Assembly: GCF_006345805.1 (NCBI RefSeq)
Contig: NW_021835437.1
Span: 1-64,000, forward strand
Origin: Octopus sinensis
Taxonomy: Eukaryota
Direction of reading: 5' to 3'
Length of the DNA: 64,000 nucleotides
Shown piece after piece: positions 964 through 60,177 of the stretch (positions are counted from its first letter, which is position 1; each line of letters opens with the position of its first letter). The notes beneath the pieces are model-generated. The model was not told where the DNA came from and ran no database searches. It saw nothing but the letters and a program-made list of their open reading frames with translations. Made by a program: the position numbers and the translations under genes.

Positions 964-1172
964 ACAAAATTTAGGGGATTTACCACTGAAAGTGGACAGC
1001 CTGTATGCTAGATATAGACGTGGCGTCTATATCTAGCATACAGGCTGTCCACTTTTAATGGTTAGTCATCTAAATTTTGTATGTAAAAAAATTTTTAATC
1101 TTCGGATTTTTTTTATATGCTAGGCCACTGGTTTTAATTGATTAATATCAATTTCTACCCTTATTTAATTTT
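964..1172. mobile_element. Foldback (hairpin plus tail) element between (TA)n tracts, copy 1; probably Penelope-like-element (PLE) derived
   Basis: Perfect 32-bp inverted repeat (989-1020 / 1024-1055, loop TGG), extendable imperfectly to 964-1080. It is followed by a ~90-nt unpaired tail. Shares accact..gtggacagcc..tatgctaga and tail sequence with 7456-7680. Confidence 0.7.
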
Positions 1173-2297
1173 ATATATATATATATACACACACACACGG
1201 GTTGGGTTGGGCAGACAGAGAAACAGATTCAGACAGACACACAGACACACAGACTGATAGATAGAAAAATAGATAGATGCGTGTGTAATTATGGACTCAA
1301 TTAACCCGACAAAACTTCGCACTAATGTACAGTGTCTATACACGTATAACCATATGATATAGACATACATGCGTGGTTGTATGAGTTATGTGTGTTTGTC
1401 TGTGTGTTTGTGTGTGTGTTTGTGTGGTGTTGTGTGTGTGTATTGTGTGTGTGTGTGTGTGTGTGTGTGTTGTGTGTGCGTGTGTGTGTGTGTAAATAGC
1501 CTGAAGGATTCACAAACAAGCTCACTGTGCCAATTTACCTTTAAATTTAACCAAACATTATTATAATAAACATGCGATTTACATTCCGAATAACCAACCT
1601 CCGCATTTATACACGCTGTATTTGGTAAACACATGGATCCTCATACACAGACGGACATATTTCCATTTATAACACACACATACATACATATACATACATA
1701 TGTATGAGTATATATATATATATATATATATATAATTCTTATGTATATTTTTATGCATATTTATGTATATATACATGTTTATATATATATACATATATAT
1801 ATATACATATATATATACATTAACATATATATATAGATATATATATATTTATATATATATATTCTTACACGCACAGAATCTGGAGTCTATATATTATCAA
1901 GTCATATTCCACGCAAACACACTTGTGCACTTAAAAGCACCCCCATCTTACATGCAAACACATAACTTCTCCTTCTTTTTACTTTGTTGCTCCAATCATT
2001 TCTATATTTCATCTTTAGATCTGTAGTCATCTATTATGAACCCATAACAAATCGATTATCCATCAGTTCCACACACTTTCAATGGCAATTCAGAATCTAT
2101 TGAATTAAGGAAGTCTTGGAATCACGAAAGCCATCTTGGATTCGGTACAAACTAATATCACGGATGATGTAAACTCTATCGTATGTTGAGGGTTATTCGG
2201 GTCACTCATGTTTGATAACATAGAAATGAAGTCCACAAATATACTGTAGTCTCACAGTAAGTCTCACCGATTGCACTAAGGTGCTGCGGTGACGCTC

Positions 2298-2352
2298 AGG
2301 TCAAGCTAGTGTCAAGATGGGATCAAGCTGAGGTCAAGCTGAGGTCAAACTG
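2298..2352 (+). repeat. Short 11-bp tandem repeat (AGGTCAAGCTG-like, about 5 units)
   Basis: aggtca 2298, gtgtca 2309, ggatca 2320, aggtca 2331, aggtca 2342, at an exact 11-bp period. Confidence 0.8.
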
Positions 2353-2414
2353 TAGTTAATCTGCAACACTTTGCGGTGCAACATGTTTGTGTTTTAACGT
2401 TTTTCTTTCATGCT

Positions 2415-2640
2415 TTACTTGTTACAGTCGTTTTACTGCGGTCATACTGGTGCACCGCTTTCAGGGTATTAGTCAAAGAAATCGATATCAGTCAGTAAGT
2501 GTTGCTTCCTACTTTCTTTTTCTTTGTTTTAAGTCTGGTATTTTTATATTATCGGTTTGTTTTACCGAACATCAAAGACACTCGGACGTGAACAAACCAA
2601 CGTCGATTGTGAAGCGGTGGTAGGAGGACAAATACAAACG
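2415..2640 (-). mobile_element. SINE family A, 3' half (degenerate)
   Basis: Reverse complement matches the 3' half of the full copies at 26403 and 42496 (ccagcatggccgcagtcaaatgactgaaacaagtaaa-like). Confidence 0.7.
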
Positions 2641-2740
2641 CAAAGATTACACGCTTGCATACACACACCTCATACATTCGCACAAGCAAGCACGCACAAA
2701 CACAATCACACACACAAACATACACACATACGCATATATA

Positions 2741-2885
2741 TGGCCGTGTGGTAAGTAGCTTGCTTACGAACCACATGGTTCCAGATTCAGTCCCACTGCG
2801 TGCCACTTTGGACAAGTGTCTGCTACTATAGCCTCGGACCGACCAAAGGCTTGTGAGTAGATTTGGTTGAAACGGAAACCGAAAC
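2741..2885 (+). mobile_element. SINE family A, 5' half (tRNA-derived head)
   Basis: ggccgtgtggtaagtagcttgcttacgaaccacatggttccagattcagtcccactgcg..., with A-box- and B-box-like motifs; more than 10 similar copies in the window. Confidence 0.9.
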
Positions 2886-3073
2886 TACAAGTAACCCTCA
2901 CCGCCAGAAGCCATGCATACGCCGTGTCCCAGTTTTGCTCATGTAATAGTGAACTTACGTACAACAATGTGGCCTAACTATCTCAACCTCAACCCACCCC
3001 AATTGCGGAAAATTTTACAATTGCGGCGTGACTCTGGAGCAACATTTCACTGTTTGGTATTGAATTAATCTAT

Positions 3074-3289
3074 AAGGCGGCGAGCTGGCAGAAACGTTAA
3101 CACGCCGGGCGAAATGCTTTGCGGTATTTCGTCTGCCGCTATGTTCTGAGTCGACTTTGCTTTTCATCCTTTCGGGGTCGATTAAATAAGTACCAGTTAC
3201 GCACTGGGGACGATGTAATCAACTTAATCCGTTTGTCTGTCCTTGTTTGTCCTCTATGTGTTTACCCCCTCCTGGGTAGTAAAGAGATA
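3074..3289 (+). mobile_element. SINE family B with 18-bp target-site duplication
   Basis: aaggcggcgagctggcagaaacgtt head and central ttttcatcctttcggggtcgat..aagtaccag (Deu/Nin-domain-like). TSD ggtattgaattaatctat at 3056-3073 and 3290-3307. Confidence 0.92.
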
Positions 3290-3508
3290 GGTATTGAATT
3301 AATCTATTGTAAAAATAAATGCTAAGCAACACATTTTCTTCCTCTTTGCGTTGTAAGTTCAAATATCTCTGAGAGTGAGTTTACTTTTAACGTTTTGGGA
3401 TTAGATTTAGTAAACGTCACTCAATTAGTGGAGTGAATCCAATCGAGTTAAATTCTTCCTCAAACTTGCTGGCCTTCTTCCAAAATTTGAAACACTCGCA
3501 TTGCGATC

Positions 3509-3760
3509 GTGAATTGATCTGTAACAATACAGTGTTGACTAAAGTATCGCATCTAGACATTGCAGAAACCATTGCAATTTTAGCATAACGATGTAGTTAT
3601 ATGTCACGGTACGTGATATTGTATTAATTTGTTGAAGGTGAATTGATCTATTACAGAGCAGTGTTGACCGATCTCTCCCAGTGAGAGCTTGCAGAAAATA
3701 TCGCAACCATTCGCATTTGCCACGGTTTTGCGATGGTGAATGAATCATTTATAATGTCGC
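3509..3760 (+). repeat. Degenerate tandem duplication, ~130-bp period
   Basis: gtgaattgatct..cagtgttgac..ttgcagaaa appears at ~3509 and again at ~3638. Confidence 0.6.
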
Positions 3761-3934
3761 TCTGACCAATCAGTCGTAACGTAAATCTCGGTAAATATAT
3801 TCACATTTCGATATTAGATCACTGGCACAGATTGATTTTAGATTTATCTAAGTCTGTATGTAGTTGGTTAATATTTCTTGACGCGAAGTAATCATGAAGC
3901 TAAATCAACCCAGGATAAAAATAGGTTAAATTAA

Positions 3935-3994
<60 letters not shown>

Positions 3995-4499
3995 AATGTA
4001 GGTAAAGAAAATAATCATGACGCGCCCGCAGCAAATCATGACATACGCAGAGCAAATCTCGCTGCAATAAGAGTCCATCATTCTGGTGGAGGAAAACCAC
4101 GTGATTAAATAGTTTGCTTCTTAATTAGATCGTTCTCGTTCGATTACAACGTGGCGAGATTTCAAGCAACTATTTTCTGTTGTGTGAGAAAGATAGAAAA
4201 TAAAGTGAAACGAAAAGGAGTCAAGTCGCGCTGGAAGAATAAAAGATCGCCTCGGGAAGCAAGGACATAGTTGATAATATAGTCTCGAACAGATGAGATG
4301 TGAATAGAAGTAAAAGATACGAGGAAGAGGATTGTGGTTAAGAATCTCAGGATTACTCTGTTGATATACGTGTGTAATTGTTTGTGTGTGTGCATCATCT
4401 GTGTGTATGTTTGTGTGTGTATAGGTATATGTGCGCAAGGCTAGCTTGAGTCTGATGAGGCCAAACAAGAGACTTCATTCATACAAAGGCAGGCAGGGT

Positions 4500-4576
4500 G
4501 ACAGGGACAGACAGACAGATATGTAGGTAGGTGAATAGATATATATAGATAGATAGATATAGATTGATAGATAGAT

Positions 4577-4607
<31 letters not shown>

Positions 4608-4646
4608 TAGACAAATAGATAGATAGATAGATAGATAGATAGACAA

Positions 4647-4693
<47 letters not shown>

Positions 4694-4732
4694 TAGATAT
4701 AGACAGATAGATAGATAGATAAAGAGATAGAG

Positions 4733-4769
<37 letters not shown>

Positions 4770-4778
4770 TGTAGACAA

Positions 4779-4824
<46 letters not shown>

Positions 4825-4885
4825 TAGATAGATAAATAGATATAGATTAAAAAAATACATAGATAGACAGACAGACAGACAGAGA
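4500..4885. repeat. (GATA)n/(GACA)n microsatellite
   Basis: Read directly from the sequence. Confidence 0.97.
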
Positions 4886-5341
4886 AACGGACAGGGAAAA
4901 GTTACATTTGACGATATTCATAAAGAAAAACAGATAAATCGGTCGTAAAATATTTCTGGCAAAGCTCCAGAATGGACACTGCTGATGCACAATTGGTTCC
5001 ACTTATAAATGTATTGTTACTCTTTATCTCGTTGCCAAATCCCCGTCGGCCAACAAATTGCTGTCTTGTAAAAGGTGGGGTGCAACAATATTTGATTTAC
5101 GGTTAGTAATGTTTTCCCGTGACAAACAACAATCACACTTAAATACACACGATTATATATACGTATGTGTGTATGTATGCATGTGCGAAAATAAGTATGC
5201 AGCTACGTAGGTACGTTTGTGTATATATATATATATATATATATATACATTTGTGTTTGTGTGCGTGTGTGTATGTTTATGTGTAGTGTATGTCATGCTG
5301 ATATATATCTCAAATATATGTGTATCAGATTCTGAGTCTAC

Positions 5342-5372
<31 letters not shown>

Positions 5373-5771
5373 CATATCTATCTTTCAATCAATATATGTC
5401 TATATGCTATATGTGTGTGTGTGCCTGTGTCTGTATGTCTGTGTGTGTGTGTGTGTGTGCGTGTGCGTGTGTTATAACATTGTTATTTGCTTACTTACAC
5501 AGCTTTACCACATTAGGCAGAGATAGAATTTCGCCACTGTATGTAAACGAGATTTGATTCAGTGATGTATGGCTTCCGCTCGAATGTCTTCTCTTGTTGA
5601 CAAAAGTGGATAATTGAAGCTGTATGATAGAAGAGACTCAACAAAGAGGATTCCGCTACCTCTAACCCACTGGACTCCAGCTTTGAGGCCCCTAATTAAC
5701 AGAGGACATGGTACACACTGGACGCAACCTATTCTATTACTCTGTGTAAGTGTTTATACATACACTTACAT

Positions 5772-5920
5772 AGGCAGGAGTGGCTGTGTGGTAGGTAGCT
5801 TGCTTATCGACCACATGGTTCCGGGTTCAGTCTCACTGCGTGGCAAGTGTCTTCTACTATAGCCTCCGGCAGACCAATCACACTTGTGGGTGGATTTCGT
5901 AAACGGGAACTGAAAGAATG
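5772..5920 (+). mobile_element. SINE family A, 5' half
   Basis: aggcaggagtggctgtgtggtaggtagcttgc...cgggaactgaaagaa. Confidence 0.88.
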
Positions 5921-6056
5921 TATGTATATGTTTGTGTGTCTGTGTATATATACATTTACGTGTGAATATATATATGCATATTTATATAAAGATGTACATA
6001 TATACGTTTTTACACACACACACACACACACAAATATATATTATATATATACATTC

Positions 6057-6088
<32 letters not shown>

Positions 6089-6263
6089 TACATTCATATA
6101 TATATACCACACACATATATATTATATATATCTATATATATATATATATAAATACAAAATGGGACAAGAACGCAAAACATCCGGACAACTAGGTGATACT
6201 AAAAGAGACAAACAAACAGAAAGACGATACACATTTATATATAGCGGCGTACGTACACTTTGT

Positions 6264-6319
<56 letters not shown>

Positions 6320-6330
6320 ATATATATATA

Positions 6331-6545
6331 ATATAATATTAATTCGAGACAAACCCACTATTTTGCAAAACAAACAAGGAAAGACTTAATCAATACATAA
6401 AAATTTTTTATATATATTAAAAATGTTTATGTATTGATTAAGTCTCGAATTAATATTATATAATATTTTACTATAAAATTGGATTTAATCCTAAATCTGA
6501 TTTTTCCCTGTAAATTTGGATTTTATTCCCTAAATTTTTATAATA
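6331..6545. mobile_element. Foldback plus tail element in (TA)n, with an internal deletion in one arm
   Basis: 6331-6350 pairs with 6442-6461, and 6382-6401 pairs with 6426-6445. A ~85-nt unpaired tail and (TA)n follow. Confidence 0.65.
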
Positions 6546-6565
6546 TAATTATATATTATATAATA

Positions 6566-6606
<41 letters not shown>

Positions 6607-6607
6607 G

Positions 6608-6640
<33 letters not shown>

Positions 6641-7405
6641 TAGAGAGATAAATAATAGATAGATGATAGATAGATAGATAGATAGATGATAGATAGATAG
6701 ATAGATAGGTAGGTAGGTAAATAAGCATATAGATACACACATACATACATAAAGCTATACACTAATGCAGTCAACACAGATTTTAATGATTGACAATGAC
6801 GTGAAATGATGACCAACACCCACAAGTATTGTTTTCGTTATTCTGAATCGATTCCGTGACAGGTTTCATAGAAATATTGTTCTGTCGGTAGCAGATTTTC
6901 TGTCGGAAACTAGACATTCAAGAATTCATAGTTCCAGCCAAAATATTACAAAACATAATGCAAATTTATGAGGTAGCGACACATATTCTTCGAATTTGTA
7001 AGGAATATGCAGCCTAAGCCACACTTTCTCTCTTTCTCTCTCGCCCCCCCCTTCTCTCACTCTCAAATGTATTCAAATATGTGTGCATGTATACTTCTTT
7101 TTGAATGTATGTTCATATATTTATATTATATATCTGGCGGAGATCCTTATACAGAAAATTCGCTATTGACCCTGATAAACACTTTTCTCTTTCTGTTTTT
7201 TTTTTTATTTCTTTTTCCCTTTCGCTCTTTGTCTTGGATTATGTCTCTCTTAATATGTCTCTATACTCGCCATATGTGTTCACTTGTTCTCTTTTTCACT
7301 TCTTATCATAGAATCTCTTCATATACATCTGGGAGGGAATTCTCCACCTTAAACTCCCGAATACATTCATGGCCTCTTCGATTGGAATGATGCTTTTCTA
7401 CGGGG

Positions 7406-7455
<50 letters not shown>

Positions 7456-7462
<7 letters not shown>

Positions 7463-7680
7463 GGGCTAAAAACCACTATGTGGACAGCCATATGCTAGAA
7501 GTAGATCACATACGATCGTATGTGATCTAATTCTAGCATATCGCTGCCCACATAGTGGTTTTTGCCCTAATATACACATGATTGGAATTTTCTCTGATTT
7601 TTCAGATTTTGTATGCAAAGCTACAGGTTTTAAATTGATATAATTAAATTAATTATGTAATTTATATACCTCATTATTTA
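7456..7680. mobile_element. Foldback (hairpin plus tail) element in (TA)n, copy 2
   Basis: Near-perfect ~59-bp arms (7456-7515 / 7516-7574) centred on tacga|tcgta, then a ~105-nt tail similar to 1081-1172. Confidence 0.72.
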
Positions 7681-7849
7681 ATATATATATATATTATTAT
7701 ATATATATATATATATATATATATCCAGTGGGGGAGCCTAGGTGAGAAACAAGCTCTTTCTCTATGGACCAGAAATCTTGAAATAAAACTGAACAATGAC
7801 ATACATACATACGTACCCATACATATACACACATGCATACATACATACA

Positions 7850-35769: not shown

Positions 35770-35915
35770 GTCTTTTATGCTTGTAATTTATATGGTTATT
35801 TAAACATACCGGTTTCTTTTAAATTGATGTAATGCTTACATTAATCAATTAAATGGAGCCGCTTGAAACGGCCGAATGTATTGACACCTGTACATGATTG
35901 TTACTTATTTACATT
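35770..35915 (+). mobile_element. HHR-family element, 5' core lost
   Basis: Retains the aattgat-gtaatg..catta-atcaatt hairpin and gctt GAAA cggccg; the tail ttgacacctg..ttgttacttatt matches the copies at 33320 and 38998. Confidence 0.6.
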
Positions 35916-38330: not shown

Positions 38331-38855
38331 AAAGCAACGCAGAGGGTCTTGCACATTCCGATTGCATATGCACAACCTGTCCATAAATTACCTTTAGAAT
38401 TTGAAAAAAAATCGAAAATAGATGAAAAATAAGAACTCAGCAGAGTTTACTGAAAAACACAGCCAACCAAATAAGGGTTTTATTGGAATCATCAGAAAAC
38501 TTGTACCTGGCTGCATTATTTGCAAAGAGAGTGACTGATGGATCTCAAATTTGACAGATGAAATAAACTGTGAAAGTTATAAAGATAATTTATGAACATG
38601 TTGTTTTATATATATATATATTCAGATGAATATGGTCCTCTAGGATACACCCTAGGATACACCCTAGTTTCTCTTAGATTTGATAAACTAAATTAAAACT
38701 CATCTCCCACCCCACCCCCCACTAGTAAATCTAAATAACAGAAATTATCAGTGATAAGCAGTGTCTTTTTCGAAAAAATTTCAGTTACAACTGTGATGTT
38801 GTTGATATATAGGTGTGCGTGCGTGTGTGTGTGTGTGTGGTGTGTGTGTGTGTGT

Positions 38856-38889
<34 letters not shown>

Positions 38890-38997
38890 TGTGTGTATGT
38901 GTGTGTCTTTGTCTATCTACTTATCCTCTTGATGATTTTGGATAAAAAGAACATTATAGAAATGAGTCCTTCGAATTCAACTAAATTCTATATTTTT

Positions 38998-39086
38998 ATG
39001 TAGCTGAAGATTGCTTTACATTTTAAATTGATGTAATGTTTGTATTGTTCAATTAAATCGAGTAGCATGAAACGATCGTACTGCAT
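38998..39086 (+). ncRNA. Type I hammerhead ribozyme motif with extended stem II
   Basis: Stem I atgtag/ctgcat; CTGAAGA 39004-39010; stem II tgct/agca with a basal U.U and a ~48-nt insert; GAAA 39069-39072; palindromic stem III acgatcgt; triplet GTA (after 39080). Confidence 0.82.
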
Positions 39087-39202
39087 TACCTCTGGATTTT
39101 CTTGTTGCTTATTTTAATTATTATCACCTTATTTTAAATTCTATGGATAATACCATACTAAATTCTGGTGCCTCAACATAAGTACCATATATGTATATAT
39201 AT

Positions 39203-59630: not shown

Positions 59631-59889
59631 TGTTGTTGTGTGTGTGTGTGTATGTGTGTGTGTGTGTGTGTTTACACATGGATCCATCTGTAAATATCAT
59701 CACCACCTTCTACTTTGGACTCTTATTCTAGACGACGTCAATTAATTACAAATAACCGCCAAAATAATAGGGTTGCCATCTGGCGAGGTTTTCATGAGAG
59801 AACTTTCGACAAGTTACAATCTATCAATTACTCTCTTTCTCTCCCTCCCTCCGTCTTCATTTCTTTATCTCAGTATATATATATAAGTG

Positions 59890-59932
<43 letters not shown>

Positions 59933-59978
59933 ATATATATATAATTATATATATAGATATATATATATATATATACTA

Positions 59979-60012
<34 letters not shown>

Positions 60013-60059
60013 TAGATATATATATATATATATATATATATAACCATATATATATATGT

Positions 60060-60090
<31 letters not shown>

Positions 60091-60177
60091 CGTATATATA
60101 TATAAATATATATGTATACATATATATATATATATCTATACATATATAATATATATATATATATAATATACGTATAT

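Follow-up and report, generated by a model that had tools for sequence, protein, structure and literature searches.

Two hairpins in an Octopus sinensis contig as probable head-to-head insertions of hammerhead-carrying, Penelope-related repeats

Introduction

A stretch of 64,000 nucleotides (nt) of the Octopus sinensis genome (assembly GCF_006345805.1, contig NW_021835437.1, positions 1–64,000, forward strand; hereafter the window) holds two hairpins with one-sided unpaired tails, each lying between (TA)n tracts, and this raises the question of what sets the point at which each of them turns back on itself. An initial annotation had placed the turning point at stem III of a hammerhead ribozyme. 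We find that the apices do not correspond to stem III of a hammerhead, and that both hairpins are probably 5'-truncated head-to-head insertions of non-coding units carrying a hammerhead motif, made by a Penelope-like reverse transcriptase (RT) for which unit RNA served as template at both nicked strands of a (TA)n target. The element is a real feature that had been given the right superfamily and the wrong turning point, and its main value lies in the pairing of its two end sites, through which the coupling of the two ends can be counted.

Results

In element 1, position 964 pairs with 1080 to form a hairpin (964–1080) and an unpaired tail runs on to 1172, while in element 2 position ~7459 pairs with ~7571 and the tail reaches 7680; (TA)n borders both elements on both sides. 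Their folding energies were -82 and -78 kcal/mol, respectively (z ~ -18 and -17), with 0/200 shuffles as good, and self-BLAST gave 87% and 92% identity between the two arms, compared with 62% between the full units of the two repeat families, family 1 and family 2, to which the elements belong. The hairpins therefore lie where they had been described, and their arms are closer to each other than to the other copy, as had been noted. The apices read GACGTGGCGTC at 1017–1027 and ACGATCGTA at 7512–7520, again the letters given in the initial annotation, but their identification as stem III plus cleavage triplet did not hold. The features are listed below, where unit coordinates refer to the full repeat units and sites 1 and 2 are two fixed 3' sites at which insertions end.

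856–963, no strand: (TA)n-rich flank to the left of element 1
964–1021, minus strand: inverted arm of element 1, ending outward at site 1 and covering family-1 unit ~446 to 384
1017–1027, no strand: junction of element 1 at a native GACGTC palindrome (unit 383–388), outside stem III and 116 nt 3' of the cleavage site
1022–1085, plus strand: sense arm of element 1 as far as site 1 (unit ~383–446)
1086–1172, plus strand: tail of element 1, site 1 to site 2 (~85 nt), then (TA)n
7409–7458, no strand: (TA)n flank to the left of element 2
7456–7515, minus strand: inverted arm of element 2, family-2 unit, site 1 (~442–451) down to 378
7512–7520, no strand: junction of element 2 (unit ~378) at GATC, a native palindrome within TTTGATCGT, 105 nt 3' of the cleavage site
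7516–7580, plus strand: sense arm of element 2, to about site 1
7581–7680, plus strand: tail of element 2 (~100 nt), ending at site 2, then (TA)n at 7681–7724
38999–39085, plus strand: type I hammerhead-shaped motif of a separate third family, parent of neither hairpin

When placed on full units, the two apices are short native palindromes, GACGTC in element 1 and GATC in element 2, and stem III proper reads ACTAATTAGT, ACCAATGGT, ACCGGT or a variant of these in the two families. Longer copies read TTTTGACGTC at the position of the element 1 apex and TTTGATCGT at that of element 2, and none has a ribozyme core directly upstream, which is the outcome that had been named beforehand as speaking against a turning point in the ribozyme. 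Mirroring GATCGT necessarily gives ACGATCGT, and GATCGTA mirrored about GATC gives ACGATCGTA, so the match between the element 2 apex and stem III of the motif at 39 kb is forced. We also considered a decayed second hammerhead at the apex, as CTGAATT lies ~45 nt upstream in both families, and rejected it because the core GA is missing and family 2 is without GAAA there.

Two further observations concern inverted repeats within the window. All six differences between the arms of element 1 (964–988 vs 1056–1080) fall in the outer 25 bp, with the inner 36 bp perfect, and one of the six is a family polymorphism; this pattern could reflect the use of two templates, or conversion close to the apex. 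No inverted repeats in the window are longer than those at 59874–60165 (~106 nt, 86%).

Using the right arm and tail as query against the 2.72-Gb genome, we obtained 2,274 candidates for element 1 and 1,107 for element 2, and a family-1 17-mer had 3,114 exact matches. Families 1 and 2 are related, colinear, non-coding repeats with units of 505–550 bp in hundreds to thousands of copies, the unit lengths being taken from natural tandem copies (528 bp in L174, 550 bp in L042, and 505 bp in a younger subfamily, L368); dimers to 6-mers occur at these three loci and at L198 and L381. Among frames of at least 130 amino acids no coding frame was common to the units, and with it the RT and GIY-YIG open reading frame (ORF) of an autonomous Penelope-like element was absent. 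Each unit in the natural tandem copies has one type I hammerhead motif of the form CTGAYGA...GAAAC-palindrome-GTA/GTC, with stem III fully self-complementary in 125 of 145 such motifs from the fetched loci, stem I covarying between the families, and the core and stems conserved across ~50 family-1 copies. In the loci fetched, (TA)n lies at most insertion ends of both families. The initial annotation had proposed descent from Penelope-type elements, a type I hammerhead whose stem III is palindromic, and an inverted repeat with a one-sided tail and (TA)n flanks, and all of these are borne out, the hammerhead being part of the full unit. Rfam analysis of the whole window gave, among the 150 of 331 matches listed, microsatellite-driven microRNA matches only, and no RNA sequence carrying the families was found among the matches listed, which is no evidence either way on expression.

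The hammerhead at 39 kb had been taken as the model for the apices. A type I-shaped motif does lie there, with CTGAAGA at 39004, GAAACG at 39069 and ACGATCGT at 39072, and is a putative hammerhead by motif, its folding energy being no better than that of shuffles. The proposed link to the hairpins was not upheld, as the full units of families 1 and 2 gave no BLAST match to it, and the motif therefore belongs to a third family (window 38712–39190), which has 2,465 candidates and the same inverted architecture, with its two end sites only ~20 nt apart. The copy at 35817–35910 is a decayed relative (76% over 95 nt).

For analysis of whole insertions we sampled loci with the exact tail pattern. 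Family 1 had 353 matches, of which the 100 listed yielded 97 rows; family 2 had 215, and 70 loci among the 100 listed yielded 73 rows. Removal of duplicates left 89 and 69 rows, and seven complex or cut rows were dropped (L092, L155, L114, L152; L181, L260, L200). Junction mapping was accurate to a few bases, with inverted arms of <20 nt being missed. On this basis 59 family-1 and 38 family-2 insertions were inverted and 26 and 28 were plain, the inverted arm thus missing in 26/85 and 28/66, respectively.

The outer ends of these insertions lie at the two fixed 3' sites, which are 80–100 nt apart, and the stretch between them forms the tail. The inverted arm had its outer end at site 1 in 49/59 cases in family 1 and 30/38 in family 2. 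An internal motif was used to select 40 loci among the first 100 matches listed; of the 30 head-to-head insertions in this sample, 29 had one end per site (p = 3e-8 against a 50% ceiling under independent choice), the exception looking truncated. Likewise, ribozyme-anchored loci with both ends at a site had one end per site in 13/14, with nine more having an end elsewhere. Pooling these end-unbiased insertions, 42/44 have one end at each of the two sites. Ends at either site are also seen in plain insertions, and site 1 therefore behaves as a start site.

Comparing the arms of 74 single-unit insertions (tandem rows and four others excluded), the tail-less site-1 arm reached >12 nt further 5' than the tailed site-2 arm in 40, the two were level in 18, and the site-1 arm was shorter in 16; within the class of 40, each arm holds sequence missing from the other. 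The arms of a single insertion have subfamily alleles and rare variants in common, being concordant at polymorphic columns in ratios of 160:33 (72 discordant expected) and 279:9 (112 expected), and L368 and L381 carry near-identical multimers on both arms. These two loci are head-to-head arrays (L368, 1646–5421, ~5+2 units; L381, 1292–3891, ~1+4 units) that are at least 99% alike by substitutions within the array, which is what rolling-circle copying of one RNA would give.

Junctions were scattered over the unit and differed from copy to copy, consistent with the earlier view that each insertion's junction was made separately and that no fixed structure of the kind found in miniature inverted-repeat transposable elements (MITEs) is present. 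A pile-up of apices at stem III, which had also been expected, was not seen. Where arms reached the window spanning GAA, stem III and the cleavage site, 1/28 in family 1 and 3/20 in family 2 ended inside it (4/48), compared with 157/998 in equal windows downstream (Fisher p = 0.22, no enrichment). Genuine stem-III fold-backs do exist: of 303 family-1 matches at the cleavage site genome-wide, 173 were listed and two of these showed one by eye (L002 and one more), with others at L398 and, in family 3, at L401 and L402. In family 3, to which the 39-kb motif belongs, there were none among the first 100 matches listed, and an exact-palindrome search of the genome found 2 loci vs 1,730 matches, a search that mutated fold-backs would escape. 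The proposal that reverse transcription halts in stem III and primes itself there is therefore refuted for both window copies, whose apices are 105–116 nt from the ribozyme, and as a general rule, and we regard it as most improbable as an account of these elements.

Level junctions recurred at other native hairpins ~70–90 nt downstream of the cleavage site (unit 357–374 in family 1 and 341–357 in family 2). In older copies they made up 20/97, about twice the chance expectation (12 vs 5.6 and 8 vs 3.0; p = 0.006 each), and in a younger sample 12/30 had loops of ≤12 nt. Both window hairpins fall in this level class, which is the minority, and among the matches listed the element 1 apex type was found in 0/100 and the element 2 type at one locus in 100.

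Two other patterns in the arm ends were noted. Single copies (L039, L048, L211 and L308) hinted that 5' ends gather at the cleavage site, but this failed as a rate. At family-1 unit 192–211, 5/26 at-risk arms (L111, L115, L120, L136, L143) stop on the 5' strand of hammerhead stem I or in the core, vs 0–2 in neighbouring windows; this comparison was made post hoc, and the interval could mark a pause or start site.

A Penelope-like RT query gave 6,097 candidates in the genome, and by sequence the genome contains autonomous Penelope-like copies. A Penelope-like open frame of 717 amino acids (L341, 3464–5614, minus strand, and L342) lies between ~260-bp direct repeats with TA flanks, at a locus with a hammerhead-like motif carrying a CCGAAGA core variant, and its RT and GIY-YIG motifs were recognised by eye; Pfam GIY-YIG gave weak matches only, on two other frames. 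Among 50 RT-bearing loci obtained with one RT query, the sole match to the families, L311, was the known insertion itself, and local alignment of these loci to the families scored at shuffle level, so that no autonomous partner was identified there. Downstream of RT matches at L328, L338, L346 and L350 there are hammerhead-like motifs with a ACCAATGGT-like stem III, whose letters match one family-1 subfamily, with no wider similarity.

Discussion

The pairing of the end sites and the lengths of the arms bear most directly on how these insertions arose. As the tail-less arm often extends further 5' and one end lies at each site, a simple snap-back of one complementary DNA (cDNA) would not give this structure, and twin target-primed reverse transcription would fit. 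We suggest that a Penelope-like RT/GIY-YIG protein would act in trans and nick both target strands, with one cDNA primed at site 2, leading to the tail, and one at site 1. The two antisense cDNAs would halt at variable places and be joined 3'-to-3' via short microhomology, which native palindromes would best supply, and when both halt at the same place a near-perfect hairpin would result, as in both window copies. The ribozyme would just process the RNA into monomers or circles, without setting the turning point. For the arms to overlap, the template would have to be multimeric or circular, strand displacement would have to occur, or two RNAs of one subfamily would have to be used.

Several observations weigh against this mechanism. 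The excess of level junctions, commoner in young copies, would also be expected from snap-back followed by central deletion; one end per site is likewise predicted by snap-back with cutting at site 1; and allele sharing could be explained by one active subfamily at a time, the within-insertion distance being below that to the nearest other insertion in only 5/20. Junction microhomology averaged 2.2–2.5 vs 0.7 nt, a value inflated by the extension method. Rfam Hammerhead_1 gave a weak match on a family-2 copy (18.8 bits, under the gathering score) and none on a family-1 copy. Furthermore, the 717-amino-acid frame had no Pfam match, RT included, and a terminal repeat matching family 1 or 2 was found in 0/50 of the RT-bearing loci.

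The main rival is snap-back at arbitrary short palindromes, in which a single cDNA begun at site 2 turns back and is extended along its own sequence, site 1 is where the copy is resolved, and central deletions at a later stage leave most junctions asymmetric. It accounts for the excess of level junctions, including those of the young copies, for their recurrence at native hairpins and for the alleles common to both arms; both window copies are in the level class, and part of that class, these two included, may have been made in this way. Self-priming at palindromic inverted Penelope junctions has been put forward before (Arkhipova et al. 2013, PMC3846280). However, the commonest asymmetry is opposite to that of an internal snap-back (40 vs 16), young copies included, plain insertions also end at site 1, and both arms can be multimers of independent length, and overall we consider this explanation unlikely.

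A MITE-like or foldback DNA transposon, with the hairpin as the mobile unit, would account for short, non-coding, high-copy elements with inverted repeats and TA flanks, but is very hard to reconcile with junctions that vary by copy, an inverted arm that is often missing, copies that are 5'-truncated and tandem, and apex types that hardly recur; fixed terminal inverted repeats with a constant interior were not found, and any target-site duplication would be masked by the (TA)n flanks. Least credible is a chimera of assembly or library, for although no short-read contig among those listed bridges the element 1 apex (inconclusive for a repeat), the arms differ by 8–13%, the outer ends lie at fixed sites, and opposite-strand family joints occur in contigs of two public runs (from one study, possibly the assembly's source).

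Within the preferred reading of twin priming, each head-to-head insertion conceivably, although this is less certain, arises in one coupled step: a dimer of the Penelope-like RT would prime both strands on a single retrozyme RNA, multimeric or circular, invariably with one cDNA per site, and strand displacement or rolling-circle copying would let the arms overlap. If true, the partial tandems of Penelope-like elements, their inverted repeat and their tail would all come from one mechanism. These short, abundant families constitute a large natural record of integration events, and the near-strictness of their end-site pairing allows twin priming to be tested directly against snap-back with a 500-nt RNA. 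Their copies also seed many inverted repeats of 60–400 bp, a possible source of double-stranded RNA.

In L1 twin priming both target strands prime cDNA and the products are joined head-to-head by microhomology, with a variable second primer site and no overlap between the segments, whereas in the octopus insertions the second site is fixed and the two arms overlap. A literature search, which did not extend to subscription papers (e.g. the 2005–2008 Penelope structure papers), found no paper on Penelope twin priming, on these families or on end-site pairing, and the word 'ribozyme' is absent from the main text of the octopus repeat-annotation paper PMC13282606.

Animal non-LTR retrozymes, described as hammerhead tandem units of 150–450 bp (Cervera and de la Pena 2020, PMC7229834) and, in recent work, connected with Penelope-like elements (Li et al. 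2026, bioRxiv 10.64898/2026.07.22.740005), resemble the octopus families in being non-coding and AT-rich, in carrying one type I hammerhead per unit, in occurring as monomers and tandem arrays, and in having been proposed as non-autonomous Penelope-like derivatives. The octopus units differ in length (505–550 bp, the published range being descriptive and no strict criterion), in their long stem II insert, and in that most copies are truncated and head-to-head; the word 'inverted' is absent from PMC7229834. Their palindromic stem III corresponds to the dimer-type hammerhead design (PMC4209133).

The architecture of an inverted truncated repeat, a one-sided tail and a (TA)n target is the published signature of Penelope-like elements. 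Endonuclease-containing (EN+) elements are reported to have truncated copies in inverted orientation, tails on one side and a bias towards microsatellites (Craig et al. 2021, PMC8557442), a source that states the formation of their tandem and inverted structures to be unresolved, and palindromes at Penelope inverted junctions were those read as self-priming in PMC3846280. Shared with the octopus families are partial tandems, an adjacent inverted truncated copy, a tail at one end, junction palindromes and AT-rich or microsatellite targets, whereas the octopus units are without an ORF, have a tail of 80–100 vs 30–40 nt, and no matching autonomous pseudo-long terminal repeat was found for them among the 50 RT-bearing loci.

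The closest biochemical counterpart of the mechanism proposed here is the lizard PAc Poseidon protein, which in vitro cuts and extends both strands from two RT start sites bounding the tail, is predicted to be a dimer, and inserts without requiring ribozyme cleavage (Frangieh et al. 2024, PMC11167929). The available text of that study gives no pairing of the two sites per insertion and no account of inverted copies, whereas in octopus the pairing has been counted in genomic copies, and its near-strictness ties the in vitro result of two start sites to the inverted copies.

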